Origin: Kiritimatiellia bacterium | GTDB taxonomy: Bacteria > Verrucomicrobiota > Kiritimatiellia > RFP12 > UBA1067 | DNA length: 64,000 nucleotides | Assembly (NCBI GenBank): GCA_050949565.1 | Contig: JBMNFY010000020.1 | Coordinates: 32,001-96,000, forward strand | Direction of reading: 5' to 3' | The notes under the pieces: generated by a model | The model's input: only the letters and a program-made list of their open reading frames with translations | The model's database searches: none | What the model was told of the DNA's origin: nothing | Program-made: the position numbers and the translations under genes | Shown here: positions 1-57,694 of the stretch, piece after piece | How the letters are laid out: each line of letters opens with the position of its first letter | Numbering within the stretch: the first letter of the stretch is position 1

Positions 1-2
1 TA

Positions 3-539
3 CGGGCGGCGTTGGGTCGCCCGGTTTTTTTTGTGCAGGAGCGGGCGGGACGTGACGGACGCCCGTTCCGGCTGGTGAAGCTGCGCACCATGCGCGAAGG
101 CGACGAACCGGATGCCGAACGGCTGACACGCGTGGGACGGTGGTTGCGTGCTACAAGCCTTGATGAGTTGCCGGAATTGTGGCATGTCTTGCGTGGCGAG
201 ATGTCGCTGGTCGGGCCGCGTCCACTGCCGGTGCGGTATCTGCCGCGCTATTCGCCGCAGCAGGCGCGGCGGCATGAGGTGCGGCCGGGGATCACGGGCT
301 GGGCACAGGTGAACGGCAGGAATTCGCTGACATGGGAGCAGAAATTCGCGTATGATGTCTGGTATGTGGATCACATGGGTTTCTGGCTGGATGTGAAGAT
401 CCTGTGGCGGACGGTGTGGCAGGTGTTGGCACGGCGCGGGATCTCGGCCGAGGGTGAAGCGACGATGGGGGAGTTTTTATTGCGACCACCCAGTGGTCGC
501 AATGACGAGTGTAAAAACGGGCGGGCAGGCGGGCGCTGA
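3..539 (+). CDS. Bacterial sugar transferase (PglC/WcaJ-like undecaprenyl-phosphate glycosyl-1-phosphate transferase), 5' truncated by window edge
   Basis: Motifs KLRTM, SLDELPELW..LRGEMSLVGPRP, RPGITGWAQVNGRN and DVWY. The frame is open to the window start. The C-terminal ~20 aa are read from a REP-like repeat. Confidence 0.93.
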   Translation, partial: RAALGRPVFFVQERAGRDGRPFRLVKLRTMREGDEPDAERLTRVGRWLRATSLDELPELWHVLRGEMSLVGPRPLPVRYLPRYSPQQARRHEVRPGITGWAQVNGRNSLTWEQKFAYDVWYVDHMGFWLDVKILWRTVWQVLARRGISAEGEATMGEFLLRPPSGRNDECKNGRAGGR

Positions 540-634
540 ATGCGCACGGGACATGCAATGGCGTCTCGCGCGAAATGTGCCCGGTGGCGTAAGTTTTTAA
601 CCTCACCTTTGTGGCCACTGGGTGGTCACGAAAA
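477..634 (+). mobile_element. REP-doublet/MITE-like element (hairpin GCGACCAC-N3-GTGGTCGC plus inverted partner)
   Basis: Left unit TTATTGCGACCACCCAGTGGTCGCAATGACGAGTGTAAAAAC (477-518) and a diverged inverted copy (593-634). The same layout occurs at 36652-36859. Confidence 0.75.
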
Positions 635-671
635 ATAAAAACGGGCGGGCGGAGAGAGGAGCGTTAGGGCA

Positions 672-1298
672 GTGAAACAGATCGTGATTGTGGGAGCGGG
701 GGGCTTCGGGCGCGAGGCGGCGTGGGTGGTCGAGCGGATCAATGCTGCTGCGCCGCAGTTTAAGCTACTGGGCTTTTGTGATGACGCGGCGGATAAGCGT
801 ACAGGGCAGTACGGCGGCTATCCGCTGTTGGGACCGCTCTCCGGCGTGAAAGCGCGTCGCGACGCGGTGGGCTTTTTTTGCGCGATCGGTAACAACCGCG
901 TGCGGCGGGATGTATTCGCCGAGGGCAGGGCGCTGGGACTTGAGCCGGTGTCGCTGATTGACCCGAGCGCGGTTATCGCGCCGGATGTGGAGATCGGTCG
1001 AGGGAGCTTTGTTGGCGTTAACAGCGTGGTGTCCGTGGGGGCGTCGCTGGGTGAGGGGGTGCTGGTGAACCATCAGGTGTGCGTGGGACATGATGCGCAG
1101 ATCGGGGACTTCGCGCAGCTTTGTCCGGGTGTGTGCGTCTCGGGCGGGTGTGAGGTTGGCGAGGGGGCGCTGCTGGGCACGCTCGCAGGCACCATTCCGC
1201 TGAAGCATGTGGGCGCGTGGGCGACGCTGGGCGCGGGCAGCGTGGCGCTCAGGGATGTGGCGGAGGGGGCGGCGGTTGTGCGGCTTGCTGCGCGGTGA
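672..1298 (+). CDS. Sugar acetyltransferase, NeuD/PglB/PglD family
   Basis: N-terminal IVGAGGFGRE, AIGNN..R, then hexapeptide left-handed beta-helix repeats. Confidence 0.9.
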   Translation: MKQIVIVGAGGFGREAAWVVERINAAAPQFKLLGFCDDAADKRTGQYGGYPLLGPLSGVKARRDAVGFFCAIGNNRVRRDVFAEGRALGLEPVSLIDPSAVIAPDVEIGRGSFVGVNSVVSVGASLGEGVLVNHQVCVGHDAQIGDFAQLCPGVCVSGGCEVGEGALLGTLAGTIPLKHVGAWATLGAGSVALRDVAEGAAVVRLAAR

Positions 1299-1378
1299 TT
1301 ATTGCGACCACGCAGTGGTCGCAATGACGAGTGTAAAAACGAGCGAGAAGGGTGGGCACTGAATGCGCGCAGAACATG
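1299..1378 (+). repeat. Truncated copy of the GCGACCAC REP/MITE element
   Basis: Starts immediately after the stop at 1298; hairpin at 1304-1322 followed by AATGACGAGTGTAAAAAC and the shared internal GGGCACTGAATGCGC. Confidence 0.8.
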
Positions 1379-1435
1379 AGAGGGTGGTATGCGCAGGAAT
1401 CGCCCGAGAAAGAGACTGGCACGAGATTGGTTAAG

Positions 1436-3142
1436 ATGAGGGTTTGGGCGAGTGAAAGAGGACGGGTGCTGGGTGTCAGCGCGTTGGTCGGGCTGGCGGC
1501 GCTGGTGGTGTATGCAACGACCGCGCAACGTGGGATCAGTTGGCAGGACAGCGGCGAGTATCAGTATAAGTTTTTAGCCGAGGCATACGACTGGGAGGTC
1601 GGGGCGGGCATTGCGCGTCTGCATCCGACATACATCCTGTTGACGCGGCTGTTGGTGTCGTGTCTGCCGGGGGGGGGTGTGCCGTATGTCTATACGCTGT
1701 CGAGCGGGGTGGGCATGGCGCTGGCGCTGGCGGTCTTGGTGCTGACGGTGTACGGCATGACGCGGTCATTGCGCGCGGGGTGTCTAGCGGCTGTATTGCT
1801 GGGCGGTGCGCACATGGCCTGGTGGCTGAGTACGATGGCGGAGGTCTACACATGGTCGCTGGCCTTGCTGATGCTGGAACTAGCGTGCCTGATGAAGACG
1901 CTGCGGGAACGATCATTCGCATGGTTTGCGGGCGCGATCTTTTTCAACGGTTTTCATTTCGGAGTGCATCACTTTGCATTGCTGAACCTGCCGGTGTATG
2001 CGGTGCTGTTCTGGTTGCTGTTCCGGCGCAAGGCGTGGCACTGGGGCGCATGCGCGGGGCTCTGGCTATTCGGCGCGTTGCCGATTGTGATCCCGATCGT
2101 GCGTTATTGGGTGGCGAGTGGCAGTCTGGAAGCGGTGATCCGGAGTGCGTTGTTCGGCGAGGTGTTCCAGCAGAAGATCTTGGCGTTGGATGTACGCAAT
2201 GGGCCGCTCTGGAGGGCGAACATGGCGCTGGCGAGTGTTAGTTTCATGAATCCGTGCTGGCTGTATGCGGTGGTGGTGCCGCTGGTGGCGTGGCGAGCGT
2301 GGCGGATGAGGGGGAGAACGTCGGACGTCGAACGCCGAACGCCGAACGCAGAACGTCGAACGTCGAACGTCGAACGCAGAACGCAGAACGCAGAAGTGGA
2401 GAATGGGGAAAACGTTCAACTTTCAACATTCAACGCTCAACGCTCAAGTACGGGAACGGGAGGGGCAAGCGTCCGCTTGCCCGAGAACGCCGAACGTCGA
2501 ACGCAGAACGCAGAACGCAGAAGTGGAGCGACATTGTTGGCGTTGACGGCGCTACATGCGTTTTTCTGGGTGCGGTATCTGGTGCCGGATCAGGCGACCT
2601 TCCTGCTGCCGACGCTGGGGCTGCTGGCGGTGTGGGCGGGCGTGGGCGCGGCGCGTGTGTTACTGCGTGAACGGCGCGGGTGGTTTGCGCCGAGTTTGGC
2701 GGTGTCGCTGGCGTGCAGCGTGTTGGTACCGCATGCGGTTTGCAGGACGGCTGAGCGGTTGTTGCCGCCACGGTCGCGTGTGTTACCGTTCCGCGACGAG
2801 TTTGCGTATTGGGCATATCCGTGGAAGCACAACGAGGATTCGGCGGAGCGATTTGTCGAGGCGGTGGCGCGTGAGCGTTATCCCGAGGACATGGTGGTGT
2901 GGGCGGATACGACGGCGGTCGCACCGCTGATGGCGGCTCAGGCGATGGGACGGTTACCGGCGTCGTGGCGCTGGCTCTCCTATTGGCAAAATGAAGAGGA
3001 CGAGGTGATCATACAGCGGTTGCAGGCGTCGCCGGATGGCGGTTATGTGGTGTCGCCACTCCGATGCTATGTGCCGGAGGCGATTCTTGAGCAGGCGCAA
3101 TCGTTCGAGCGTCGCGGTGTACTGCATCGTATCGTGTGGTAA
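1436..3142 (+). CDS. DUF2723/TMEM260-like polytopic membrane glycosyltransferase (GT-C) with ~70-aa repeat-derived in-frame insertion
   Basis: VY.T....SWQDSGEY and WWLSTMAEVYT match DUF2723-type motifs; many TM segments. Start is uncertain (1352, 1376 or 1436). Confidence 0.75.
   Translation: MRVWASERGRVLGVSALVGLAALVVYATTAQRGISWQDSGEYQYKFLAEAYDWEVGAGIARLHPTYILLTRLLVSCLPGGGVPYVYTLSSGVGMALALAVLVLTVYGMTRSLRAGCLAAVLLGGAHMAWWLSTMAEVYTWSLALLMLELACLMKTLRERSFAWFAGAIFFNGFHFGVHHFALLNLPVYAVLFWLLFRRKAWHWGACAGLWLFGALPIVIPIVRYWVASGSLEAVIRSALFGEVFQQKILALDVRNGPLWRANMALASVSFMNPCWLYAVVVPLVAWRAWRMRGRTSDVERRTPNAERRTSNVERRTQNAEVENGENVQLSTFNAQRSSTGTGGASVRLPENAERRTQNAERRSGATLLALTALHAFFWVRYLVPDQATFLLPTLGLLAVWAGVGAARVLLRERRGWFAPSLAVSLACSVLVPHAVCRTAERLLPPRSRVLPFRDEFAYWAYPWKHNEDSAERFVEAVARERYPEDMVVWADTTAVAPLMAAQAMGRLPASWRWLSYWQNEEDEVIIQRLQASPDGGYVVSPLRCYVPEAILEQAQSFERRGVLHRIVW
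2316..2528 (+). repeat. Intragenic composite element: (GAACGYN)x11 - (CAACGCT-type)x4 - hairpin GGGCAAGC/GCTTGCCC - (GAACGYN)x5
   Basis: Read directly; translates in frame as RTSDVERRTPNAERR...STFNAQRS...NAERRTQNAERRSG. Confidence 0.9.
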
Positions 3143-3657
3143 GGGAATGTCATGAGCAAGCGGATTTTTTTGTCGCCGCCGTGGCTGGGCGGCAGCGAGC
3201 GGGCCAGGGTGGAAGAGGCTTTCGCGTCCGGCTACATCGCGCCGTGCGGGCCGATGGTGGATCGGTTTGAGCGCGCGTTCGCCGAGCGGACGGGCATTGC
3301 GCATGCCTGTGCGTTGTCGAGCGGGAGCGCCGCGCTCGACCTGCTGTTTCACGAGTTGGGGATCGGTCCTGGGGATCGTGTATTCTGTTCTGACCTAACC
3401 TTTATCTCTTCCATCGCGTCGGCGGTGCAACGCGGTGCCGAGCCGGTGTTCATCGATTGCGACGAGACAAGCTGGACGATGGATCCGGATTTGCTGGAAG
3501 AGGCGTTGGCGCAGGCCGCAGCCGAAGGGCGGTTGCCCAAAGCGGTGGTGGCGGTGGATCTCTATGGTCAGTGCTGCGACTACGGGCGTATCGAATCGCT
3601 GTGCGAGCAGTACGGGGTGCCGCTGATTATTGATGCGGCGGAGGCGCTGGGCGCTTG

Positions 3658-3860
3658 TTATTGCGACCACGGAGTGGTCGCGGGAACGTCAGAACTCAGA
3701 ACGCAGAACTCAGAATGCAGAAGCGGGAACGTTCAACGCTCAACGCTCAACGCTCAACGCTCAAGTTAGGGAACGGGAGGGGCAAGCGTCTGCTTGCCCG
3801 AGAACTCAGAACGCAGAACGTAGAACGCGGAACGCAGAAGTGGAAACGTTCAACGCTCAA
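3658..3860 (+). repeat. Intragenic composite element: REP hairpin + heptamer arrays + GGGCAAGC hairpin (sister of 2316-2528)
   Basis: GCGACCAC hairpin 3663-3681; GAACNCA units 3684-3719; (CAACGCT)x4 3734-3761; hairpin 3780-3799; GAACGNN x5 3802-3836. Confidence 0.9.
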
Positions 3861-4229
3861 GGAAGGAGCGCCGGAGATGCTGGATGGGCGGCGGTGTTTT
3901 CTTTTAACGGCAACAAGATCATCACGACATCGGGTGGCGGGATGTTGGCGTCGCGTGATGCGGGGGTAGTGGAGCGGGCGCGGAAGCGGGCGCAGCAGGC
4001 GCGTGAGCCGGTGGTGTGGTATGAACACCGGGAACTGGGATACAACTTCCGCATGAGTAATATCGTGGCGGCGATTGGCGTGGGACAGCTTGAGGCACTG
4101 GAGATCATTCTCGCGAAAAAGCGGCAGATTTTCGAATGGTATTGCGAGCGGCTGGAAGACGTGCCGGGGGTGAGGCTGATGCCGGAGGCGGGGTATGGAC
4201 GGTGCTCGCGGTGGCTTACGGTGGTGGAG

Positions 4230-4385
4230 TTATTGCGACCACGAAGTGGTCGCAATGACGAGTGTAAAAACGGGCGAGGAACAGGCACTAGATGCGCACG
4301 GGGCATGCAATGGGGAGATGCGCGGGGAGAGCCTAATGATGAGCCCGGCAGACCACGAAGTGGTCGCAATGACGAGTGTAAAAAC
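4230..4385 (+). repeat. Two direct copies of the GCGACCAC REP inserted in frame in the aminotransferase
   Basis: Copies at 4230-4271 and 4351-4385, each translating RPRSGRNDECKN. Confidence 0.88.
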
Positions 4386-4636
4386 GAGCCGAGCGCGCAA
4401 GTGATGCGGGTGATTGAGGCGCTTGAGCGGGAGAATATCGAGTCGCGTCCGGTGTGGAAGCCGATGCACCTGCAACCGGTCTTTCAAGGGGCGCGGGTGG
4501 TCGGCGGGGCGGTTTGCGAGCGTCTGTTCGCCAACGGGTTGTGTCTGCCGTCCGGTGCCGGGCTCGAACGGGATGATGTGGAACGGATTTGCGACGTGGT
4601 AGTTGCGGCGCTTGCAAAAGATGTGTCAATTAAATC

Positions 4637-5056
4637 TCACACAAAGGCACAAAGGACACGAAGGGTATCCACAGATTAACACAGATTACGCATTTTTTGG
4701 GGGGGTAGGGCTCGGGTTTGTTTAACCACGGAATACACTGAACACACGGAAAGGCACTGCTCGGTTTTTTTATCACACAAAGGCACAAAGGACACGAAGG
4801 GTATCCACAGATTAACACAGATTACGCATTTTTTGGGGGGTAGGGCTCGGGTTTGTTTAACCACGGAATACACTGAACACACGGAAAGGCACTGCTCGGT
4901 TTTTTTATCACACAAAGGCACAAAGGACACGAAGGGTTTTTGGGGGCACTGCTCGGTTTTTTTGAAAGATGAGCATGGTTTTTCATGAAGTTTCATGTGT
5001 TTCATGGTTCGGTTTTTTATCCACAGATTGCTCCTAAATCACAAATCACAAATTCA
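4637..5056 (+). repeat. Repeat island: 135/136-bp unit x2.2 followed by further short-period modules
   Basis: Units start at 4637, 4773 and 4908 and differ in a G7/G6 tract; followed by TTTCATG-type and AAATCAC-type repeats. Confidence 0.9.
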
Positions 5057-5072
5057 AAAAAGGATGATCATT

Positions 5073-8000
5073 ATGCGGTACTCGTGTTTAATTGCCCTGT
5101 TTGTTTTATGTGTCTCGCGCGTTTCTGCCGATTGGCATGACGCGCTCTGGCTGGGCCGGGGTGATGTCTGGCGTGCCCGCTTTCCGGTCACGGTGACGAA
5201 TCCCGGTGACGGTGAACTCGACGGTCAGGCGGTCGCGTTGACGGTGGGCGGAGAGCCCGGCCAGGCACCGCTCGTTGGTGCGCGGGCCGAGGCGTTGCGC
5301 GTGGCCGACAGCCAAGGTCGCCAACTGCTCTACGCGCTCTGGACGCCGGATATGGATCGTCAGATCACCACCGGTGCGGTTCCGGCTGGCGCGGTCTTGA
5401 GCCTGCCTGCTGTCTGCGGTCCCGCCACCTCTACCACCTATCACGTCTATTTCGACAATGCGTGTGCGTGGGGCTTGGCCGATTTCTTCGACAAGCGGCC
5501 CCTCACCGACACTAACGGAGATTTTGAACGCGGCAGCGGCGATACGCCGGCAGGATGGCGGCGGCAGATGAGTGGTGCCACACACCGTCTTACTTGGTCG
5601 ACCGAAACGCCGTTTTCAGGCACGCGCTGTCTTAAGGCCGAGGCTTCGTCGGGTGCTGCCTCCGTGTGGTTCGGGTTTTCGCGCTCTGACTTTACCGTCG
5701 TTCCCGGAGCGCGCTGTACCATCCGGGTTCGTGTGCGTGGCGAAAACGTCACCGGCACTGCTGGCTGGTATGTGCATGTCGGCGACGAAAAGAATTTACA
5801 GCGGATCAATCGTGTCGAGAAGGCTGGCGACGGCACGTTCGGTTGGAAAGAGATGCAGATCACCTTCACCGTTCCGGAGGGCGCGACGCGCATGGCCACC
5901 GGCTCCGTGCTCTACGGCACCGGCACAGCTTGGTATGACGCCTTCAGCTTTGAGAGTGACCGTCCGGTACCGATGCCCAGTGCGCGTGCCGGTGCGGTTG
6001 AGCGCCTTGAACTGATCGAACAGGGCGCGGATGCGCCATGGCCCGCCGAGCTACGCGGACGCCGATCGAATTGGCTGAGGCGCGCTGTCGCGTCGATCCT
6101 GCCTCGTTATCGCGTCGCCGAATGTCCTTGGCGTTACCGCCTGCCGATTCGCGTCGTGAATCTGCGCGACACGCCAGCCACCAATCTGCTCGCCGTGGCC
6201 GATCTCGCAAGCGCCGCGCGCGGGATCGTCGCGCCCGAGTTCCGCATGACCTTTAATGGCGAGACCGTTGAGACTTGCCGATTGGGCGACCGTTTGCTCT
6301 TCTCATGCTCGCCTAGTGCGCGTAGTCTGTCAACCTACTACCTGTATGTGGCTGATACCGGCAAGCGCCCTGAACCGAGCGCCGCGGCTGCTTCCACGCT
6401 AGGTAGCGATATTCCTTCGGATCAGATTCTGACGACCGGTTCCGACGCTACCGATGCGGTTGCCTTTGCCAAGTTGCTCGTCAGTCCGGTGAATCAGGTC
6501 AAAAACCCTAGCTTTGAAGAGGGGACGGAGCAATCCGATGGTTGGTCGCACAGTAGCGAAGGCAAGGGCGTCCGGTTTGCGATCGAGAGCCCCGGTGGTT
6601 TTGGTCAACGCCATGCCCGTATGGCCGTTGATAAATCCGTTACCCTCGCTTGGCGCGGCTGGTATCAGTCGGTACCGATCAAGGCCGGGCACACCTACCT
6701 GTATGGTGCATGGCTTGCCTGCGAGGACCTAGAGGGTTCCGCCATGTTGCACGCGCACCTGCGTAATGCACAGGGGCAGGTGACTGCGGGCGGTTTTCTC
6801 GGCGCGGGCGCTGGTATCAGCGGCACCGCGATGTGGACCCCGATGTTCGGCACTGTCACCGTGCCAGCGGATGCGAGCGTGTTCCAACTCCATCTTACCA
6901 TGAATGCGCACGGCACGCTCAAACATGACGGTGCCTTTCTGGCCGAGTGTCTGAACGCCACAGCCGGAGACCCGGAAACCCCGCCCATGGATCCGGATGA
7001 GCTGACGGTGTGGCCGGTCGATCCGGTCATCAAGGTTTTCCATGAGACCCTCCCCCCGGCGCAACCGGAAGCGAGCGCGATTGCTCTGGCACGCAACGAA
7101 GAGGAGGCGCTGCAACTCGCTTTGCGCGCCGGTCGGGACATTGCCGATCTCGAGATTGCGGTCGACCCGCCGAAGCGGCGCGATGGTCAGACGCTTGATA
7201 CCTTCACGATCGGTTGGGTCGGTTATGTGCCGATCGACCATCCGACCTCTTACTACAGTCTGACCACGCCGACGTGGCAATTGAAGCATCCTACGCGGGC
7301 TGGCTCGTCGGACGGCTGGTCTGGTTGGTGGCCTGACCCGATCCGCCCGGCCGCGCGCGGTGCGCTACGTGCCAACCAGACGCAGGCGGTGTGGGTTTCG
7401 TTTAAGGCCACGGCGACCACGAAACCGGGCACCTACGCCGGGAACGTGCGCATTCTTGATGCGGATAAGCGTCTTGTGCAGCGCGTACCCTTCACCGTCA
7501 CGGTCTGGGATTTTGAGCTGCCCACAGAAAGCACTTGCGCCGCGATCTATGACATCCGTCTCAGTCCGCAATGGACAGCCGACGGCTCGACGGCAGCGCA
7601 ACAGCGCGAACGGTTGATGCGTGTCATGGCCGACAAACGTGTGTCGCCCGACGATGTCGGCGCAAGCCCGGTCTTCACGCGTGACGAGCAAGGGCGCATC
7701 ACCGCTGATTTCACAGCGTACGACCGCGCCGCACAGCTCTATTTCGACGAGTTGAAATTCCGCTTCTCATACACGCCGGGCTTCTTCTATCTGTTCGGTT
7801 GGGAGCACCCGCCCAAGAAGGTGATGGGCGAGGCACCTTACGAGGGTGAGCATCCGTATGCCGATGCAGACCGCACACGTCTGCGCGCCGCCTACAAGGA
7901 GACCTACCAGACCTGTCTGCGCCTCTATTGGGATCATGTCAAAGCCAAGGGTTGGGCCGACCGGCTGGTGCTCTATATTTCTGACGAACCCTTCCTCACC

Positions 8001-8696
8001 AAGAAGCCGATCATTGATCAGATGAAGGCACTCTGCGACATGATCCATGAGGTCGATCCCAAAATTCCGATCTACTGCAGCACATGGCGTCACTGCCCGG
8101 ATTGGAACGGGTATCTCGACGTTTGGGGCGTCGGGCATTACGGATGTTTCCCGCTCGACGAGATGCGTGCGCGCCGCGCCGCCGGCGACCGCATCTGGTT
8201 CACCACCGACGGCCAGATGTGTACCGACACGCCCTTCTGTGCGGTCGAACGTCTGCTGCCCCATTACTGCTTCCATTTCGACGCTGAGGCGTACGAGTTC
8301 TGGGGCGTGAGTTGGTTGACCTATGATCCTTGGCAGTTCGGCTGGCACCGTTACATTCATCAAAGCAGCACGCCCGGCGAATTTTACTACGTGCGCTATC
8401 CGAATGGTGACGGCTATCTGCTTTATCCCGGTGCACCGGTCGGCTCTCCCGATCCCGTGACCACCGTGCGCCTGGAAGCCGCGCGTGACGGCGTCGAGGA
8501 TTACGAGTATCTCAAGCTCCTGCAGCGGCATGCGGGCAATCCACAGGCCGACGCCCTGCTCAAGGAGTTCGCCGCGCTGGTCGAGATCCCCAACGCCGGG
8601 GGACGCTTCTCGACCCGCATCCTGCCAGATCCGTCGCGCCTCGCTGCATTGCGTCTGCGCGCCGGAGCGCTCCTAGAGCAACTCACCGCACGGTGA
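5073..8696 (+). CDS. Secreted multidomain protein: CBM4/9-like domains + DUF4091 (GH123-like) C-terminal domain
   Basis: Signal peptide MRYSCLIALFVLC..; NGDFE and NPSFEEG carbohydrate-binding module starts; C-terminal NGDGYLLYPG..VRLEAARDGVEDYEYL. Confidence 0.75.
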   Translation: MRYSCLIALFVLCVSRVSADWHDALWLGRGDVWRARFPVTVTNPGDGELDGQAVALTVGGEPGQAPLVGARAEALRVADSQGRQLLYALWTPDMDRQITTGAVPAGAVLSLPAVCGPATSTTYHVYFDNACAWGLADFFDKRPLTDTNGDFERGSGDTPAGWRRQMSGATHRLTWSTETPFSGTRCLKAEASSGAASVWFGFSRSDFTVVPGARCTIRVRVRGENVTGTAGWYVHVGDEKNLQRINRVEKAGDGTFGWKEMQITFTVPEGATRMATGSVLYGTGTAWYDAFSFESDRPVPMPSARAGAVERLELIEQGADAPWPAELRGRRSNWLRRAVASILPRYRVAECPWRYRLPIRVVNLRDTPATNLLAVADLASAARGIVAPEFRMTFNGETVETCRLGDRLLFSCSPSARSLSTYYLYVADTGKRPEPSAAAASTLGSDIPSDQILTTGSDATDAVAFAKLLVSPVNQVKNPSFEEGTEQSDGWSHSSEGKGVRFAIESPGGFGQRHARMAVDKSVTLAWRGWYQSVPIKAGHTYLYGAWLACEDLEGSAMLHAHLRNAQGQVTAGGFLGAGAGISGTAMWTPMFGTVTVPADASVFQLHLTMNAHGTLKHDGAFLAECLNATAGDPETPPMDPDELTVWPVDPVIKVFHETLPPAQPEASAIALARNEEEALQLALRAGRDIADLEIAVDPPKRRDGQTLDTFTIGWVGYVPIDHPTSYYSLTTPTWQLKHPTRAGSSDGWSGWWPDPIRPAARGALRANQTQAVWVSFKATATTKPGTYAGNVRILDADKRLVQRVPFTVTVWDFELPTESTCAAIYDIRLSPQWTADGSTAAQQRERLMRVMADKRVSPDDVGASPVFTRDEQGRITADFTAYDRAAQLYFDELKFRFSYTPGFFYLFGWEHPPKKVMGEAPYEGEHPYADADRTRLRAAYKETYQTCLRLYWDHVKAKGWADRLVLYISDEPFLTKKPIIDQMKALCDMIHEVDPKIPIYCSTWRHCPDWNGYLDVWGVGHYGCFPLDEMRARRAAGDRIWFTTDGQMCTDTPFCAVERLLPHYCFHFDAEAYEFWGVSWLTYDPWQFGWHRYIHQSSTPGEFYYVRYPNGDGYLLYPGAPVGSPDPVTTVRLEAARDGVEDYEYLKLLQRHAGNPQADALLKEFAALVEIPNAGGRFSTRILPDPSRLAALRLRAGALLEQLTAR

Positions 8697-11091
8697 TGAG
8701 AATCCCGGGGATGGGCTTCACCGGCGTCACGCTCACGTCGTCGATCGCCAGAGCTTGCGCATCCGCTACAGCGTCACCCTCCGCGACGGCAATCTGCCAC
8801 GCGAGGTAGAACGTCCCGCCCGGCACGACTGGCGTGCTGCACACGACCCGGCGCGCCGCGCTGCTGGTCGCACCCGGTTCGGTGTCCGTTCCGAAGACGA
8901 CCGGAGCGCCGACCTGCGCTCCATGTGACGCCATCCGTGCTGTACAGCAGTCGCACCGCGCTGGCAGCGGTGCCTTGCCTGTACTTCTCAACGTCAAAAG
9001 TCACGTCCCACTTGCGCACGTCCAGGCTCGTGCCGTTGGTGAAGCGAGCCATGATCGAGACGCTCTGCGCCTGCGTGTTATCCGTGAGCCCGCCGACCGC
9101 TTGGTCGCGGCGGCCGTCTGACGCGAAGTTGTAGCTGCCGGCGGCCGTGAAGCCGGGTGCCGCGTTGTCGTGCGTGACGGTCGTTTCAGCGTCCGCGTAT
9201 GCGCCGGTCGTGCGTACGCTGTCGCTTGTCTTCGTGCGCCAACTCCACGGCAGGACGTCCGCCGCATGCTCACCCATCTCGTCGAAGGTCTCGGTGATGC
9301 CGTTCGTCGGCACGAGGATACCTGCGGGCATGTCTCCCGCCGTCCAGGCGACATTCACATGATCGATGCCGAACGCATGGTCGTTTCCGGTGTCATCCAC
9401 ATCAACCCAGCGCAGCAGCAGTGTTCCGCCCGGCGGAATCGGTCGCAACAGGCGCACACAGCCGTCGGCTGGCACTGAGATGTCGGCGGTCACTGGGCCG
9501 CCTTTCTGGAAAAGCTCGTTCGTCACGAGCGGAGAGTCAAAGCAGAGCGCGGTCAAGCGGTGCCAAACCCCTTCTTCGTGCAAGGGGAACACGCAGTTCG
9601 TGATGCAGTACTCGGCCAAGAGCGTGTTCGTCTGCGAGTTGGCGCCGACGCGCCACTGCCGCGAGCGGCTCTGGATCACGCATTCGGTGACGGCGTTGTC
9701 GCTGGCGTTGGTCAGTGCCATGCCGTATACGTAGTCGCGTTTGCCCCCGGCCAAGGAACCCAGCGAATAGGTATTGCTGCCTTCGAAGCTGAAGGCGTAC
9801 AGTGCCCCCGCCGTCCCCGAGCCTGTGCCGTAGATGAACGACGTGACGGGCGCGTTCTTGACGTAGGCGTACCAGGCGTGAAGCGGTTCGGCTGCGTTGT
9901 CCCACACGGTGGATCCACCATAGCTTCCCAGCGCCTCGAATGTCTGGGAGTAGGTGCCGGATACGCCCGTCATGACCACCGCCGGCACACAGGCGGGCAG
10001 CACCGTGATCACCAGATCACGCGGCTCGCTCCAGCCGTCCTTGTCCTGCGCGGTGAAGGTAAAGGTCTGTACGCCTTTGTCTGCGGCGGTCGGCGTGTAG
10101 GTGAAGACCCCCGCATGCAGCGACCATGCACCGGAGATGCCTGCGGAAGCGGTCACGTTGGTCGCCGTCACCGGATCGTCGTTCGTCTCCTGAATCACGA
10201 CATCGCATGCGAAGGTTTCGCCCACGCGCACGGTTTGCGACGTGAAGGGGACGATCCGCGGCGGCTCGGCGGCTGTGTTCACCTTGATCACGTTGGAATC
10301 GGCGGTGACCTCCGAGCCATCCGTCGCCCGCACCACGTACCAGTAGACGCCTTCGACGAGGTTGGTGACCTGATACGAGGTGACGGCTCCCACCGCCTCG
10401 TTTGTCAGCGCGTACACGCGCGTGCCGTCGCCGTACTGCACGGTCACGTCGTCAATGGCTGCGAATTTCCATCTGTGTCTTTGGTATAGACCAGCCTCGA
10501 AGCGCGTGTAGGCGCTCAGCAGCCGAAAGGGGATAGCTTTGCGTCACGCGGCCGTGTTCGTTGGTCATCGGAACGTTATCGAGTTCCGTCCACCCGGTCT
10601 CATTGCTCGCCGACACTCTGGATCGACGAAGAGCCTGTCACGATTACCCCTGTACCAGAAAGAGAGATTCGTCACTGCGGCGGGATACTCTGCCGTCGTT
10701 ATCGAGTGGTCGGTCGCCTGAGAGTTTGATGGACCGGTATCGCCGACACCCGAGTGTCTGAACCCTTGTACGTCGAGTCGCTTGCCATGACCTTGATTCC
10801 CATCCTTCAGGTGTGTAATCGTCGGATAGTCGTTAAAGCCCTCGCTCACCGTTGATGGGCGGCACGCCGTCGCACCGGTAGACGTCCAGCATGTATCCGG
10901 TTGCGCCGGTCCACCGCCGACCAGTTGGCGGTGAAGCCGGTTGATGTGATCGAGGTTGCCGCCTGTGCGGTTGGCGGCGTCAGTTGCGCGTGCGCCCGCT
11001 GTGTGCCCGCCGTCAAAATGCCTAATCCGCAAACGCACATTGCGGTCAATCTTTGAAGCTCACGCCGCGACATTGTGTGATTGTTTGCCAT
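8683..11091 (-). pseudogene. Fragmented gene for a secreted FN3-containing extracellular protein
   Basis: Pieces in different frames: 11091-10846 (signal peptide, then ATSITSTGFTANWSAV FN3 start), 10447-8774 (FN3 end and beta-rich modules), and C-terminus ..IDDVSVTPVKPIPGILITVR at 8683. Several frame breaks. Confidence 0.65.
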
Positions 11092-11539
11092 GTGTTCTGA
11101 TCCTTTTCGTGTTTATCAGCATCCCATAGGCGAATTCGGAAACGCACCGCGCCGATTTTCATGATCGGCACCACGCATTATCGCACGGAGGAGTGAAAAC
11201 AGGCAAGCCTGAATCCCCTGTAACTCTCTCTGCTGGTGGCAAAGTTAGCCTATCCTTGTTAGACCAATGCGTTACTTCCGTCAGGAAACGGTTAATTTTC
11301 ACCCGACGCCTTTTCCGGTAGCGGGTCAATCCAAGTGGGCACGACAATTGCGTCGTTCTTGGGGTTGGGTGTCGAGCGTATCGTCGTGCTCGGTTTTGTT
11401 GCGTCTGGGGCATGGTGAAATCGGCGGATAGAAGTGGAGAAGTGCAGGACGATGATCATTACTCTGTGAACCTCTGACTGTGCCTTTAGGGGAAAGAATA
11501 TATCCGGGCGCTTGTGGAAGTCAAGGTTGCATGTCCAGC

Positions 11540-11568
11540 TTGTTTCTCGTAGGGGGCTTGGGTATAGT
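11540..11568 (+). promoter_or_regulatory. Possible sigma70 promoter for queA operon (also in copy 2)
   Basis: TTGTTT-N17-TATAGT about 30 nt upstream of the queA ATG. Confidence 0.35.
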
Positions 11569-11599
11569 TTGCACACATTGCACGGGGTGATGGAGTGTT

Positions 11600-12670
11600 A
11601 TGCTGACAAGTGATTTTGATTATGAATTGCCGCAGGAGTTGATCGCGCAGGAGCCGCCTGCTGAACGTGGAGCTTCACGCATGATGGTGCTGCACCGCGC
11701 GGAGGGGCGCCTGGAGCATCGCCACGTGGCCGACCTGCCGGAGTATCTCTCGGTGAATGACTTGCTGGTCCTGAACGACACGCGCGTGTTTCCGGCGCGC
11801 ATCCGGGGGCAGTGGGTGGATACCGGCGGGGCGTTCGAGTTGCTGCTGGTCGAGCCGGTCTCGGGTGATGCCGAAGCGGCGTCCGGCGAAAACGTGTGGC
11901 GGTGCATCACCGGCTCGGGACGGCCGGTTCGATCCGGACAGCGCGCAATCTTTGCCGAGGGGAACTTGACCGCCGAGCCGCTTGCTAAAAATGACAACGG
12001 CACATGGGATGTGCGCCTGTGCTCGGCGGAACCGCTGATGGTGGTGCTGGAGCAGTACGGGCTTACACCGGTGCCACCCTATATCCACCGCAGTGGCGAT
12101 GAACGCCAGGCGCGACTGGACCGTGAGCGGTACCAGACCGTCTATGCGCGCGAGACCGGCGCGGTGGCGGCACCGACGGCCGGGTTGCATTTTACGGAGT
12201 CCCTGTTCGACGCGCTTGCGGCTAAGGGCGTGCGGCGCGCGACGGTTACGCTGCATGTGGGGCCGGGCACCTTCAAGCCGGTCAAGACCGATACCGTGGA
12301 GGCGCACCGCATGGATGCCGAGCGCTATGCGGTGCCGCAGGCCACGGTTGACGCGATTCGCGACTGTCGGGCGCGCGGCGGACGCGTCGTGGCGGTCGGT
12401 AGCACTAGTGTGCGCACGTTGGAGAGCGTGGCGGCGGCGCACGGCGGTGAGGTGGTCGCAACTGCCGGTTCCAGCACCATCTTTATTTATCCGCCCTACC
12501 GCTTTCAGGCGACCGACATGATGCTCACGAATTTCCATTTGCCGCGTTCGACGCTGATCATGATGGTTGCGGCGCTGGCCGGACGCGAACTCATTCTGGC
12601 GGCCTACCGCGAGGCAGTCCGTCAACGTTACCGTTTCTTCAGCTACGGGGATTGTATGCTGATCGTGTAA
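11600..12670 (+). CDS. queA: SAM:tRNA ribosyltransferase-isomerase (copy 1)
   Basis: SDFDYELP.ELIAQ, PPYI.R, YQTVYA, GAVAAPTAGLHFT, LHVG.GTF, TNFHLPRSTL, YRFFSYGD. Confidence 0.98.
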   Translation: MLTSDFDYELPQELIAQEPPAERGASRMMVLHRAEGRLEHRHVADLPEYLSVNDLLVLNDTRVFPARIRGQWVDTGGAFELLLVEPVSGDAEAASGENVWRCITGSGRPVRSGQRAIFAEGNLTAEPLAKNDNGTWDVRLCSAEPLMVVLEQYGLTPVPPYIHRSGDERQARLDRERYQTVYARETGAVAAPTAGLHFTESLFDALAAKGVRRATVTLHVGPGTFKPVKTDTVEAHRMDAERYAVPQATVDAIRDCRARGGRVVAVGSTSVRTLESVAAAHGGEVVATAGSSTIFIYPPYRFQATDMMLTNFHLPRSTLIMMVAALAGRELILAAYREAVRQRYRFFSYGDCMLIV

Positions 12671-12781
12671 GACTTCAATGTTGTTTCTGACAGGGTAATT
12701 CGGTAGACTGATGCGCGATTTTTGGGTGACGTGCGTCCGGACGCATTGTCCTGATCTGATTGTGTGAAGAGAGGCTTTTTT

Positions 12782-13120
12782 ATGACGATGAGTAAGGTCG
12801 CGGAGGTGCTGCAGGCAGAGGTTCTTGTCAAAGGGGACGGTATGTCGCGCCGCGTCGGACACGTGATGGCGTCGGATTTGATGAGCGACGTATTACTGGT
12901 CGATGAGGAGGATATGCTGCTGTTGACTTCTCTGGCCAGTGATCAGGTCTTGCGTACCGCCCAGATTGTTGGCGCGGTGGGGGTGGTTGTCGTGAATGGC
13001 AAGCCGCTGCCCTCTTCGATGGTGAATGTGGCGAATGATCTCGGCATGACCTTGGCCACCAGCCGTCTGTCCAAGTATGATGCTTGTGTGGCGGTGCATA
13101 CCGCCCGCCATCCGTTATGA
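12782..13120 (+). CDS. DRTGG-domain-like protein (copy 1)
   Basis: ASDLMSDVL, LLLT.L...QVLRTA, and V.V.GK motifs. Confidence 0.8.
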   Translation: MTMSKVAEVLQAEVLVKGDGMSRRVGHVMASDLMSDVLLVDEEDMLLLTSLASDQVLRTAQIVGAVGVVVVNGKPLPSSMVNVANDLGMTLATSRLSKYDACVAVHTARHPL

Positions 13121-14085
13121 GCACGTCCGACAGCCAGCCTCCCATTGCGCCGGAGGAGCGCACTACGTTGGGAGAGACGGACAACGATCCGATCGTGCTG
13201 CTTGAACTCATCCAGCGCCTGAAGGTGCGTGATGTGATGACCTCGAATCTGGTGACGGTGCCGCGCGACGCAACGATGCAGCAGGCGCAGGAGTTGATGC
13301 GCCAAAAAAAGATCAGCAGCGTGCCGGTCGAGGAGAAGGGGCGTCTCTTCGGTTTGGTCAGTATCGATGACATCATTCGGGCGCTGGTCGCGGGCACGAT
13401 CCATGAGTCGTGCGGACGTCACATGACAACCAAGCTGGTGGTGCTAGAGGACGACATGCCGCTCTCCTTCGCGCTGCGTTATTTCGACCGTTACCACTAT
13501 GGGCGCTTCCCGGTTATCAATCGCGACCGCCAACTCGTGGGCATCATCTGCCATCGTGACATCAACCGCGCGTTGCTGGTTGAACTAACGCAGGAGTTGC
13601 ACCGTCTTGAGGGAGCCTCGCTCCAGAAAGATGGTGACGATGGGTCGGGGAGCCTTTATCTCTTGCGCGAATTCCCGATTTGTAAGTATGATTTTGAGAA
13701 CGCTGGGAAGGCCGCGAATCAAATCAAGCAGGTGTTGCAGGAAAAGAAACTCCCACCGAAGATCATCCGGCGGATCGCAGTGGCGGCGTATGAACTGGAG
13801 ATCAACCTGTGTGTACACTCCGATGGCGGGGTGCTCTCGTGGCAGATCTCGAACGGACGCTCAGAGATAGTCGCACGCGATGCAGGCCCCGGCATTGAGG
13901 ATGTCGAGTGGGCTTGCCGTGACGGTGCCTCTACCGCCAACGAGTGGATCCGGTCGTTGGGGTTTGGCGCGGGCATGGGCTTGGTGAATGTGCGGCGGGT
14001 TTCGGATGAGTTTGACATCAAGTCGAAAAAGGGTTCGGGAACAACAGTGAAGTCGATCATCTACATCGAGGACAAGGCATCATGA
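13117..14085 (+). CDS. CBS-domain / RsbT-like ATPase (anti-sigma Ser/Thr kinase) fusion (copy 1)
   Basis: Tandem CBS repeats (VRDVMT, FPVIN), then DFENAG.A, YELEIN, D.GPGI.D and GFGAGMGL.N. Confidence 0.85.
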   Translation: MSTSDSQPPIAPEERTTLGETDNDPIVLLELIQRLKVRDVMTSNLVTVPRDATMQQAQELMRQKKISSVPVEEKGRLFGLVSIDDIIRALVAGTIHESCGRHMTTKLVVLEDDMPLSFALRYFDRYHYGRFPVINRDRQLVGIICHRDINRALLVELTQELHRLEGASLQKDGDDGSGSLYLLREFPICKYDFENAGKAANQIKQVLQEKKLPPKIIRRIAVAAYELEINLCVHSDGGVLSWQISNGRSEIVARDAGPGIEDVEWACRDGASTANEWIRSLGFGAGMGLVNVRRVSDEFDIKSKKGSGTTVKSIIYIEDKAS

Positions 14086-14426
14086 CACTGAACGCGTTGA
14101 TTGTTGCTTGTGGTTGGGAACCGGCGCTGGTGCCGGACCCCGAGGTTGAGGTGTCGGGCGCGTATGTGTCGGACCTGCTGAGCGATGTGATGGCTCACTG
14201 CCCGGACGGTGCCGTGTTGATCACGGTGCAGAACCACACCAACTCGGTGGCGGTCTGTACGCTGGTGGGCGCGCCAGCCATTGTGCTCGTACACAACCGG
14301 GAGATTCCGGAAGAGATGCAAGCCGCGGCCTCGCGTGAAGGTGTCGCGTTGTTGCGGACGACGGACGACCAGTTCCATGCAGCCTTGAGGGTTGGGAAGG
14401 CACTTGGAATCGGAGTGGGTGAATAA
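14082..14426 (+). CDS. DRTGG-domain-like protein (copy 1)
   Basis: GAYVSDLLSDVMA and ITVQ.H.N.VAV. Confidence 0.8.
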   Translation: MTLNALIVACGWEPALVPDPEVEVSGAYVSDLLSDVMAHCPDGAVLITVQNHTNSVAVCTLVGAPAIVLVHNREIPEEMQAAASREGVALLRTTDDQFHAALRVGKALGIGVGE

Positions 14427-14438
14427 GGATTGTAAAGG

Positions 14439-14531
14439 CTCTTGCAAAACCCTTCGTGACATGGGCGTCCCGCCCATGAAACACGGGCAAGATGCCCGTG
14501 CCATGCCTATGAACAAGGGTTTTTGGAAGAG
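14439..14531. repeat. REP-like branched stem-loop (also 19058-19150; related unit 57353-57388)
   Basis: Outer arms CTCTTGCAAAACCCTT / AAGGGTTTTTGGAAGAG enclose hairpins CATGGGCG..CGCCCATG and CACGGGCA..TGCCCGTG. Confidence 0.7.
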
Positions 14532-14555
14532 ACGCGATAGACAGTTGGAGGAAGT

Positions 14556-15845: not shown

Positions 15846-16218
15846 GTCCGCGCCTTCCGCGCTGCGCGCGGATTTAGGATTTGAGATTTAGGATTTAGGA
15901 ATTGTCAGGAAACGGTTAATTTTCACCCGACGCCTTTTCCGGTAGCGGGTCAATCCAAGTGGGCACGACAATTGCGTCGTTCTTGGGGTTGGGTGTCGAG
16001 CGTATCGTCGTGCTCGGTTTTGTTGCGTCTGGGGCATGGTGAAATCGGCGGATAGAAGTGGAGAAGTGCAGGACGATGATCATTGCTCTGTGAATCTCTG
16101 ACTGTACCTTCAAAGAATATATCCGGGCGCTTGTGGAAGTCAAGGTTGCATGTCCAGCTTGTTTCTCGTAGGGGGCTTGGGTATAGTTTGCACACATTGC
16201 ACGGGGTGATGGAGTGTT

Positions 16219-18704: not shown

Positions 18705-19045
18705 CACTGAACGCGTTGATTGTTGCTTGTGGTTGGGAACCGGCGCTGGTGCCGGACCCCGAGGTTGAGGTGTCGGGCGCGTATGTGTCGGACCTGCTGA
18801 GCGATGTGATGGCTCACTGCCCGGACGGTGCCGTGTTGATCACGGTGCAGAACCACACCAACTCGGTGGCGGTCTGTACGCTGGTGGGCGCGCCAGCCAT
18901 TGTGCTCGTACACAACCGGGAGATTCCGGAAGAGATGCAAGCCGCGGCCTCGCGTGAAGGTGTCGCGTTGTTGCGGACGACGGACGACCAGTTCCATGCA
19001 GCCTTGAGGGTTGGGAAGGCACTTGGAATCGGAGTGGGTGAATAA
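18701..19045 (+). CDS. DRTGG-domain-like protein (copy 2)
   Basis: Identical protein to 14082-14426. Confidence 0.8.
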   Translation: MTLNALIVACGWEPALVPDPEVEVSGAYVSDLLSDVMAHCPDGAVLITVQNHTNSVAVCTLVGAPAIVLVHNREIPEEMQAAASREGVALLRTTDDQFHAALRVGKALGIGVGE

Positions 19046-19174
19046 GGATTGTAAAGGCTCTTGCAAAACCCTTCGTGACATGGGCGTCCCGCCCATGAAA
19101 CACGGGCAAGATGCCCGTGCCATGCCTATGAACAAGGGTTTTTGGAAGAGACGCGATAGACAGTTGGAGGAAGT

Positions 19175-20464: not shown

Positions 20465-20489
20465 GTCCGCGCCTTCCGCGCTGCGCGCG

Positions 20490-57659: not shown

Positions 57660-57694
57660 TTCCGCTGTGCGGAAGGATGGTTTCATAGGCGATT

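Follow-up and report, generated by a model that had tools for sequence, protein, structure and literature searches.

Heptamer arrays and a REP-like hairpin inside two glycan-pathway genes of a Kiritimatiellia bacterium are probably translated and tolerated repeats

Two adjacent glycosylation genes of a Kiritimatiellia bacterium each contain a composite of heptanucleotide arrays and a short hairpin. This composite consists of independent modules and can be amplified in tandem; it is a patchwork, not one element of about 200 bp. Judging from sequence comparisons, the two copies (A and B) are probably selfish repeats that are translated with their host proteins, tolerated there, and similar in behaviour to the Rickettsia palindromic elements (RPEs). 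The window analysed here, to which all coordinates refer, is a stretch of 64,000 nucleotides of contig JBMNFY010000020.1.

Results

Two copies with a common module order

The modules, all on the forward strand, are the following.

2316 to 2395: first GAACGNN heptamer array of copy A, 11.4 units (TRF, pattern search)
2411 to 2447: (T/C)CAACNN / CAACGCT heptamer array of copy A (TRF)
2463 to 2482: REP-like hairpin of copy A, GGGCAAGC-GTCC-GCTTGCCC (count against shuffles, centroid fold)
2485 to 2522: second GAACGNN array of copy A, 5.4 units, followed by GAAGTGGA (TRF)
3684 to 3860: copy B (sequence, TRF, pairwise alignment, hairpin count against shuffles), with a GAACNNN array at 3684-3722, a CAACGCT array at 3728-3764, the hairpin at 3780-3799 and a GAACGNN array at 3801-3839 (arrays by TRF)

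Both copies (2316-2528 and 3684-3860) run through a GAACGNN array, GAAG(T/C)GG, AACGTT(CAACGCT)n CAAGT, GGGAACGGGAG, the hairpin, GA, five GAACGNN units and GAAGTGGA, and the hairpin is GGGCAAGC-GTCY-GCTTGCCC in each. Sequence, alignment and TRF bear out this order, which an earlier note on this DNA had proposed. At the 3' end of copy B, GAAGTGGA follows the last array and is itself followed by the start of the next unit. The pairwise alignment of the copies has a mean column identity of 78% over 295 columns, with a near-identical core. The hairpin occurs three times in the window (0 expected, 100 shuffles) and the three-unit GAACGNN pattern 16 times (0.03 expected), 15 of them within the two copies. 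The arrays are direct, not inverted, repeats, and are imperfect mixtures of unit variants.

Folded as RNA, copy A has no more structure than its shuffles (z = +0.94), for which reason we dropped a structured RNA element as a candidate; its centroid fold keeps a single helix, the 8-bp stem of the hairpin at 2463-2482. An Rfam scan of positions 1-5200 with E up to 1 returned nothing at the copies and a single chance-level match, to PhrS (17.8 bits against 37). The arrays had also been described as nearly stop-free, which is true of the sense strand (three of three frames open in copy A, two of three in copy B) but not of the antisense strand, where every frame of both copies has stops.

Inserts at three sites of the host genes

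Homologues confirm that the repeats lie inside two glycosylation genes and fix the boundaries of insertion. Host genes, inserts and the associated hairpin MITE are listed below, all on the forward strand.

1352 to 3142: host gene A, membrane GT-C type glycosyltransferase, TMEM260-like, 596-aa ORF (ORF, orthologue Pfam match, synteny)
2306 to 2527: site A insert, 222 nt between conserved anchors, in frame (anchor tblastn, protein alignment, split matches)
3152 to 4679: host gene B, PglE-like sugar aminotransferase of the DegT family (Pfam PF01041, structure match of an orthologue model)
3662 to 3857: site B insert, 196 nt, frame +1 (anchor tblastn)
3688 to 3689: one extra base in the first heptamer of copy B, GAACGTCA against GAACTCA in the sister species (comparison with G004/L041)
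4232 to 4402: site C insert, 171 nt, in frame, read as LLRPRSGRNDECKN (sequence, translation, anchor tblastn)
3658 to 3681: MITE left-end remnant, 24 nt, TTATTGCGACCAC..GTGGTCGC, with copy B nested in it (100% match to MITE ends elsewhere)
476 to 640: complete MITE copy at the 3' end of a PglC-like gene (sequence, Pfam)

The ORF of gene A reads through copy A, which is in frame. The window's own gene A protein has no Pfam match; an orthologue without the insert matches PF11028 (TMEM260-like) at 29.2 bits (cut-off 24.2), and the gene order PglC-PglD-gene A-PglE is retained in other genera. There, site A holds 3 to 12 nt by anchor tblastn, and the matches of the orthologues, to residues of about 50-308 and 394-594, are separated by some 16 aa. 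At this site neither the hairpin nor the second array is present in the sister species (G004), and G005 carries heptamers other than those of the window.

In the window gene B is in two pieces, one at 3152-3769 and the other in a second frame that is open over 3630-4679, with PF01041 matched at profile positions 6-159 on the first piece and from 155-278 onward on the second. The site B insert starts directly 3' of a conserved Tyr codon, and the site adjoins, on the N-side, the strand bearing the catalytic lysine of the PLP aminotransferase. Copy B reads as described over 3684-3860, but the DNA inserted between the anchors is 3662-3857 and opens with the MITE end. Elsewhere, site B has 0 nt in 5 genomes and 30 to 381 nt, always divisible by 3, in 15 others, which makes 10 to 127 extra residues in 15 lineages; the sister species has one 117-bp unit more than the window. 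The insert at site C consists of two direct copies of the MITE end, over a baseline of 48-54 nt.

Insert lengths are divisible by 3 in 15 of 16 distinct genomes at site B (the exception being the window), in 7 of 7 at site A (anchor tblastn, one further genome having been set aside for an N gap) and in 10 of 10 at site C, counts that overstate the significance because the genomes are related and the inserts not independent. Each of the 20 PglE orthologues checked is one complete ORF (397-554 aa), with strongly conserved flanks and two hypervariable insert sites. Insert types are scattered over a tree of the PglE flanks (midpoint-rooted, 5 of 14 inner branches unresolved, and not used to count events). 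Relatives in other genera have short loops, no insert, or other repeat-derived inserts at these sites. Equally long loops in close homologues, which the earlier note had thought would tell against an inserted element, do occur, but they are themselves derived from repeats.

The MITE at 476-640 has inverted ends visible by eye, and the PglC-like ORF runs into it (its Pfam Bac_transf match stops at residue 142 of 178). Full MITEs occupy site B in G005, G006, L039, L052 and L089. Two of the three frames of this TTATTGCGACCAC element are open, and genes of the cluster, PglE and GT4 among them, contain it in frame.

Coding properties, predicted structure and sequencing support

A heptamer array encodes the same peptide in all three sense frames (ERRTQNA for GAACGCA, QRSTLNA for CAACGCT), whereas the antisense of CAACGCT and of GAACTCA has stops in every frame. 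The sense peptides are hydrophilic (KD -1 to -2.6). The reading frame of the hairpin differs between copies A and B. Inspection of the translated inserts by eye gave no N-glycosylation sequon, and this idea was dropped.

In the AlphaFold model of the PglE orthologue of the sister species, the core blocks have a pLDDT of 86-97, and values under 50 mark residues 173-237 and 239-273 of site B and residues 404-448 of site C; the model is moderate overall (mean pLDDT 66, pTM 0.66) and low confidence is no proof of disorder. Its best solved match is PglE 4ZTC (TM 0.85 on target).

The stretch is at least partly present in 20 of the 24 listed sequencing runs, which come from 17 studies; 14 of the 20 contain at least half of its sampled words. 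In the four runs compared with the window in detail, all in the form of Logan contigs, contigs join unique flank to copy B on both sides, including contigs of two RNA libraries, from which level and strand are not readable and which may contain DNA. None of these contigs spans a whole copy, so that array lengths rest on the assembly. Contig joints such as 12362-13774 and 6409-12489 were considered as traces of excision and rejected: their sides are shorter than 30 and they are cross-joins between like arrays.

One-base frameshifts in the cluster

Copy B shifts the frame of PglE by +1, with a stop at 3767-3769, because of the one extra base at 3688-3689; with this base removed, gene B is a single 508-aa ORF. 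The base is absent from the sole contig there of one metagenome, X1 (depth 123.3 of 123.3), and present in the X5 and X15 contigs; the sister species also lacks it. The aminotransferase gene of the window appears to be a recent one-base knockout of an insert-bearing allele. Upstream, a single unit of 104 bp in a series of 105-bp units splits a second GT4 gene, so that these two host genes may be dead in this strain. The first GT4 gene (597 aa) has four inserts and is still open; a search with it of 6 genomes from the same genus, 56-89% complete, gave no orthologue.

Distribution of the modules in the genome

A genome search for the hairpin and the heptamers, as the earlier note had advised, showed that the family is present elsewhere. 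The hairpin has 185 copies, 15 of them inside called CDS (92% outside), in a genome of which 84% is called coding by a crude custom ORF caller whose ORFs stop-free arrays can extend artificially, e.g., at gene starts. Its stems carry compensatory variants, it frequently forms a pair with a second, related hairpin whose loop has the opposite orientation, and 125 of the 185 copies have no such heptamer array nearby, most hairpins having other partners.

TRF reports 871 period-7 arrays (902 period-7 rows in 180 unit classes). Among the 520 period-7/8 arrays of at least 28 bp, 56 lie deep in CDS by the same gene calls (28 genes, including a class I tRNA synthetase, a helicase and glycosidases) and 464 do not. 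For GAACNNN arrays the proportion is 26 of 62; of these 26, all except one are in sense orientation (25/26) and 17 come from local amplification in one cluster.

Nearly all in-gene copies are concentrated in one 22-kb glycan cluster, where the composite is present in four genes; a further occurrence, on another contig, is at the 3' end of a PglF-like gene. A plain scheme of insertion anywhere followed by selective filtering leaves this concentration unexplained. The higher-order tandem units within genes measure 75, 105, 117 and 126 bp, all divisible by 3, and one glycosyltransferase gene has 13 tandem 35-codon units. Among the intergenic hairpin-array periods (289, 236, 181, 623, 66, 76 and 382), one of seven is divisible by 3. 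Copies A and B are segments of such a cyclic tandem unit, not bounded elements. No terminal inverted repeats were seen in the composite, and the search for target duplications at the boundaries fixed by homologues gave none that could be defined (window sequence, site comparisons).

Discussion

We propose that the copies are fragments of the genome's ordinary repeat repertoire, which comprises tandem arrays of 7-base units and a short hairpin of REP type, and that they have settled in permissive loops on the surface of two enzymes of the glycan pathway. They would be transcribed and translated as part of the host gene, giving loops that are long, hydrophilic and probably disordered. Within genes the composite grows and shrinks as tandem higher-order units in lengths that are multiples of three. 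Insertion and slippage would occur everywhere, with selection removing the events that break the frame, carry stops or hit the core; owing to this filter, the same few loops would collect repeat DNA repeatedly. The inserts themselves are presumably functionless. The suggestion that the repeats are tolerated as a peptide loop fits the frame kept at 15/16, 7/7 and 10/10 inserts and the low-confidence loops on a good PglE fold model.

The earlier note had favoured one non-autonomous element of about 200 bp. A discrete mobile element, transposed whole and either favouring coding sequence or adapted to it, could account for the module order common to both copies, the concentration of the composite type in genes (26/62 GAACNNN arrays against 56/520 of all period-7/8 arrays) and its presence in four cluster genes and a PglF-like gene on another contig. 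It is nevertheless an unlikely explanation: the modules separate at the orthologous site A in G004 and G005, the hairpin is mostly with other partners, the copies are segments of a cyclic unit without bounds, inverted ends and target duplications were not found, shuffled sequences fold as well as a whole copy does (z = +0.94), and 17 of the 26 in-CDS arrays stem from local amplification in one cluster. A frame switch had also been suggested, and a contingency locus, in which array slippage turns glycan genes on and off and thus varies the cell surface, has some appeal, since each heptamer unit shifts the frame by one and surface-glycan genes are a classic place for phase variation. Copy B is indeed polymorphic between off (the window, X5, X15) and on (X1, G004), and a second cluster gene is split by a unit 1 bp shorter. 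Switching by heptamer number is not what we observe, however: both frameshifts are single-base changes within a unit, not gain or loss of units, imperfect mixed-unit arrays are poor substrates for slippage, length differences between genomes are multiples of three, and 20 of 20 PglE orthologues are on. We regard such a locus as improbable.

Pseudogenisation of the cluster, with repeats merely filling dead genes, would explain the frameshifted PglE, the split second GT4 gene and the extreme density of in-gene repeats in this one cluster. We judge it very unlikely, because gene A is open over 596 aa and the first GT4 gene, with its four inserts, over 597 aa, PglE orthologues have conserved flanks and intact ORFs in 20 of 20 cases with inserts of up to 381 nt, and the frame is preserved at all three sites, site B of the window excepted. 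Removal or bypass after transcription (intron-like excision, translational bypass or protein splicing), another of the earlier suggestions, might be read into the stable hairpin in the middle of each copy and would provide the rescue that the window allele needs for a full-length PglE. Yet it would free length and stops from selection, and frame and stop-freeness are kept; no Rfam family matches beyond the chance-level one; contigs of two RNA libraries run contiguously from the exon-like coding flank into the insert; and the only joints listed are the short cross-joins between arrays. It is, in our assessment, extremely improbable. Introns and inteins are excised and free of frame constraint, whereas the frame constraint is strong here, and phase-variable loci toggle frame by unit number, which these inserts do not do between genomes.

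Translated, tolerated repeats invite comparison with known families. RPEs are, as partly described in PMC10969869, bounded palindromic elements of about 150 bp that encode a family-specific peptide in one frame. The resemblance drawn earlier stands as far as behaviour goes: like RPEs in that account (PMC10969869), the inserts are small repeats in frame within unrelated enzyme genes, kept open and probably translated with the host, conserved between related species and placed at sites that, on the predicted model, the fold would tolerate. It does not extend to structure, for here there is neither a bounded, wholly palindromic element of about 100-150 bp (only the hairpin with its 8-bp stem is stable, and the ends are undefined) nor a family-specific peptide in one fixed frame (the array peptide is frame-independent and the hairpin frame varies). 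The composite is instead a patchwork of 7-base arrays and a hairpin that expands as tandem units, up to 13 copies, and the host phylum differs (Kiritimatiellota).

The TAACTGA repeats of Beggiatoaceae (PMC4679880) are reportedly a case of heptanucleotide simple sequence repeats (SSRs). Others are the cyanobacterial STRRs and the GGGAATC-type repeats of Xanthomonas and Nostoc; in the part of the literature that PMC4692102 summarises, heptanucleotide repeats are described as under-represented in coding sequence and are considered in regulatory or G-quadruplex roles. The present genome likewise has many dispersed unit families, strongly over-represented outside genes, but particular families lie in frame in enzymes, where they are joined with a hairpin into higher-order units. 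REPs are by definition extragenic. Our hairpin resembles REP/REPINs as a short high-copy palindrome (20 nt, 185 copies), mostly extragenic by crude gene calls, and REP/BIME-type repeats in its pairing of related hairpins and its compensatory stem variants. The genome has Y1-transposase-like genes (PF01797, 9 matches, best 48 bits), one of them in the glycan cluster; no RAYT reaches the curated threshold, a 313-aa protein of the cluster scoring 32 bits on NF047646 (cut-off 80). Intragenic MITEs giving in-frame fusions include, in the portion of PMC10969869 that concerns them, ERIC, BOX and Anabaena MITEs, and the TTATTGCGACCAC element harbouring copy B gives similar in-frame readthrough; the heptamer-hairpin composite differs from MITEs in having neither terminal inverted repeats nor target-site duplications. 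A literature search on intragenic repeats of Kiritimatiellae found nothing relevant.

Heptamer arrays adjoin 7 of 9 23S_rRNA_IVP genes, against 4.2% of random 400-bp windows, TRF having missed the GGTTCAA-type arms of one such gene that are visible by eye. One cassette (contig C8) has GAACGCA arms with a GGAGAATGGGGAAC spacer identical to that of copy A, and two IVP cassettes lie inside this glycan cluster. It is conceivable, if doubtful, that the heptamer-hairpin composites are detached arms of an undescribed mobile cassette around these four-helix-bundle genes. An IVP-linked mechanism might then seed and spread the arrays, stop-free and frame-independent coding might let them colonise genes, and the glycan cluster might be their preferred landing ground. 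A literature search on a link between IVP and heptamers found nothing relevant; if true, this link could bear on the old question of where the heptamer repeats of bacteria come from.

As translated, tolerated repeats, the inserts show how large a load of selfish repeats an enzyme carries while under purifying selection. They also suggest a rule for 7-base arrays in genes: one peptide is encoded in all frames, which leaves total length and strand as the only constraints. Annotation can easily mistake such genes for split genes or pseudogenes, and from an evolutionary point of view the loops that collect repeats would be natural permissive sites.

Two copies of one composite in adjacent glycosylation genes

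The source genome (4.66 Mb, 60% G+C, 21 contigs; window at G000:C20:32001-96000) encodes, according to profile matches, a bacillosamine-type glycan locus at the start of the window.

Genes of the glycan locus (window coordinates)
3-539: PglC-like sugar transferase, bacillosamine-type locus
672-1298: NeuD/PglD-type acetyltransferase, bacillosamine-type locus
1352-3142: 596-aa membrane protein (gene A), host of copy A
3152-4679: DegT-family aminotransferase (gene B), host of copy B

The earlier note had read one shared architecture in 2316-2528 (copy A) and 3684-3860 (copy B), and the sequence at both stretches confirms this reading. The pairwise alignment of the copies has a mean column identity of 78% across 295 columns, and their near-identical core runs from a CAACGCT array through GGGAACGGGAG, a hairpin and a second GAACGNN array to GAAGTGGA. 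All six heptamer arrays of the two copies are detected by TRF. The hairpin occurs three times in the window (never in 100 shuffles) and a three-unit GAACGNN pattern 16 times, against 0.03 expected, with 15 of the 16 lying within the two copies. The observation of a shared composite in both genes is real.

The 596-aa protein of the window gave no match in a Pfam search. One of its orthologues, which carries no insert, passes PF11028 (TMEM260-like O-mannosyltransferase family; 29.2 bits, cut-off 24.2), and another reaches only 14.9 bits against the same cut-off. The AlphaFold model of an aminotransferase orthologue has as best match PglE of Campylobacter (4ZTC, TM 0.85 on target). Because of the PF11028 match and this structural match, the hosts are, as the earlier note had proposed, two adjacent glycosylation genes. 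Within gene A, at 2656-2667, three bases of the window are missing in all four sequencing runs compared, an in-frame codon difference. Directly 3' of the aminotransferase gene, a 135-bp unit composed of smaller 8- and 10-base repeats is present 2.2 times (4637-4937, 99% identity).

The composite is modular

The idea of a single element is not borne out: the hairpin lies mostly apart from the arrays, and the modules differ between species at the insert site of gene A. The genome holds 185 copies of the hairpin (at most two mismatches); for 125 of them, no array of the GAACGNN or CAACGCT type lies within 110 bp. Most copies are linked to another hairpin, related to the first but with the opposite loop, as well as to further small modules, a pairing also seen in REP doublets and mosaic clusters. 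Compensated stem variants occur (GGTC..GACC 20 times, GGAC..GTCC five times) alongside uncompensated forms. Heptamer arrays are a genome-wide feature, with 902 period-7 rows in 180 unit classes found by TRF in the whole genome (690 rows for period 8 and 1075 for period 9).

In the sister species G004 (DNA 96-97% identical), the insert of gene A consists of GAACGNN units, spacer and CAACGCT units, without hairpin or second array before the host sequence returns (followed there by an N gap). The related genome G005 combines a CAACGCT-type array with purine-rich and GGATTTA heptamers, and a more distant genus has a short CAACGCT array only. A cyclic unit passed through 1.5 to 2 times describes both copies best; its order is GAACGNN array, GAAGTGG spacer, CAACGCT array, GGGAACGGGAG and hairpin. 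The unit is also found in two tandem arrays just upstream of the window, both in GT4 genes, and in gene B the sister species is one 117-bp unit longer than the window.

Inserts vary in length and nearly always keep the reading frame

Homologues of gene A in other genera, among 41 related genomes searched, match residues ~50-308 and 394-594 with ~16 aa between. The insertion boundaries were fixed by tblastn with conserved 60-67-aa anchors on either side, in 78 loci and the window; several loci are one genome retrieved twice, and each genome was counted once.

Insert sites delimited by anchor tblastn (window coordinates)
2306-2527: site A, gene A; 222 nt here, 3-12 nt in most genera
3662-3857: site B, gene B; 196 nt here, 0 nt in 5 genomes
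4232-4402: site C, a third site, in gene B; 171 nt here, baseline 48-54 nt

Inserts at site B all start directly 3' of one conserved Tyr codon. Their length is divisible by three in 15 of 16 distinct genomes (30, 45, 60, 60, 108, 117, 126, 147, 156, 171, 180, 204, 225, 312 and 381 nt), the exception being the window. The same holds for 7/7 inserts at site A (G004 set aside for its N gap) and 10/10 at site C, again in distinct genomes; these counts cover related lineages and are not independent trials. Insert length differs in almost every genome, and the frame is kept through each change. The aminotransferase orthologues examined are all single complete ORFs (20/20, 397 to 554 aa), and their alignment has two hypervariable sites between strongly conserved flanks. 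Higher-order units inside genes measure 75, 105, 117 and 126 bp; intergenic hairpin-array periods are 289, 236, 181, 623, 66, 76 and 382 bp, one of the seven being divisible by three.

For the G004 aminotransferase, whose 547 aa include both inserts in frame, a structure predicted from a 17-sequence alignment has mean pLDDT 66 and pTM 0.66. Core blocks reach 86-97, and values fall below 50 at site B (residues 173-237 and 239-273) and site C (404-448). In the model, site B would lie between two strands: the first ends in the conserved DAAEALG, and the second, that of AVFSFNGNK, bears the lysine of the aminotransferase family.

The coding properties of the heptamers suit them to genes. A tandem 7-mer gives the identical heptapeptide from every frame, merely phase-shifted: GAACGCA encodes ERRTQNA and CAACGCT QRSTLNA, both hydrophilic and free of stops. 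In antisense, CAACGCT and GAACTCA have a stop recurring in all frames, and GAACGCA gives a hydrophobic peptide. Hence the description of the arrays as nearly stop-free stands for the three sense frames of copy A, which are all open, but not for its antisense frames, which are all closed. Of the 26 GAACNNN arrays situated well inside called genes (10 gene calls), 25 run in the sense direction. As the stop-free sense peptide is independent of frame, only strand and total length matter, and this explains how the repeats survive within genes with no targeting involved.

A strain-level frameshift in copy B

Reading through copy B puts the frame out by +1 and leads to a stop at 3767-3769. The extra base lies where the window has GAACGTCA and G004 has GAACTCA; dropping it restores a single 508-aa aminotransferase ORF. 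We compared Logan contigs of four runs with the region. Run X1 is one base shorter here, in a single contig (depth 123.3 of 123.3), and the extra base is kept in contigs of run X5 and RNA library X15. Given these differences and the restored ORF, the frameshift is a real one-base change at strain level, and the allele is in frame apart from it. The number of units is not what changed.

The stretch is at least partly present in 20/24 listed runs, from 17 digester, landfill and wastewater studies; 14 runs hold half or more of the sampled words. Contigs run from unique flanking sequence into copy B, from the left in X5 (12697-13764) and X15 (13406-13763) and from the right in RNA library X16 (13788-14045); these are locus coordinates, from which 10000 is subtracted to give window positions. 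RNA libraries may contain DNA. An X5 contig enters copy A by 30 bp. Among the contigs of the four runs, none bridges either whole copy and none has a trustworthy joint skipping an insert.

In-gene repeats concentrate in the glycan locus

Copies inside and outside coding sequence were tallied genome-wide, as the earlier note had proposed.

Repeats counted with our rough gene calls (2976 genes covering 84% of bases)
Hairpin: 185 in total, 15 in called CDS, 12 of these in the C20 glycan cluster
Period 7/8 arrays of at least 28 bp: 520 in total, 56 deep in called CDS, in 28 genes
GAACNNN arrays: 62 in total, 26 deep in called CDS, 17 of these in the C20 glycan cluster
MITE ends: 70 in total, 12 in called CDS, 9 of these in the C20 glycan cluster

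The 28 genes include a class I tRNA synthetase, a DEAD helicase, glycosidases, BREX genes, an exosortase and a PglF-like dehydratase; therefore, in-gene repeats are not unique to the glycan locus. This locus is ~0.5% of the genome, yet contains most of them. One GT4 gene (L013:9040-10833, in the upstream locus; C20:23040-24833) keeps a 597-aa ORF open through four separate inserts: one complete MITE, four 75-bp heptamer-hairpin units, heptamers of other kinds and part of a MITE. A second (L013:13728-16498; C20:27728-30498) carries thirteen 105-bp heptamer-hairpin units (~1.37 kb) between its N and C domains, and one unit of 104 bp splits it into two overlapping ORFs.

Other repeats were observed elsewhere. 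A PglF-like dehydratase ORF at G000:C15:55208-57412 extends ~150 aa past its domain via 126-bp heptamer-hairpin units and reaches the start of an exosortase gene, itself array-bearing. BREX-type genes (PglZ, DUF6079) at G000:C17:1739754-1755906 have many 28-30-bp arrays of different heptamers, with two IVP genes among them. The window also holds a 424-bp array of ~55 copies of the 8-mer GAAACCCC (20729-21152) and a 39-bp unit repeated 5.7 times (57435-57729, 98% identity), which adjoins a further hairpin copy (57710-57729) and CAACGCT-type heptamers (57823-57864). Small arrays (CGGACGA and GGATTTA rows, TRF) recur 4619 bp apart at 14355-15900 and 18974-20519, suggesting that several kb have been duplicated.

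Association with 23S_rRNA_IVP genes and known repeats

Period-7 arrays, mostly as inverted arms, lie within 400-500 bp of 7/9 strong PF05635 genes, against 4.2% of random 400-bp windows; flanking arrays are visible by eye at an eighth.

23S_rRNA_IVP four-helix-bundle genes bracketed by mostly inverted heptamer arrays
L013:6200-7000
L013:10840-11500
G000:C8:62004-62800

The C8 cassette has GAACGCA arms with a GGAGAATGGGGAAC spacer, shared with copy A. The glycan cluster contains two such cassettes, together with a gene distantly similar to RAYT (32 bits against a cut-off of 80). This gene encodes a 313-aa protein (L013:7950-8891; C20:21950-22891), with weak matches to Y1-transposase and REP-associated tyrosine transposase below their cut-offs, and has a MITE end at its 3' end. 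The composites may be detached arms of IVP cassettes.

In the collection of papers searched, none deals with composites of this kind in Kiritimatiellia or with a link between IVP genes and heptamers. Heptamer repeats are reported to be abundant and to lie mainly between genes, and to have received little study (PMC4692102); in-frame small repeats within genes are established for Rickettsia palindromic elements and some MITEs (review PMC10969869). The likeness to Rickettsia palindromic elements drawn in the earlier note holds for behaviour, yet the composite is without their defining features. Its best reading is that it is probably translated, tolerated repeat DNA.
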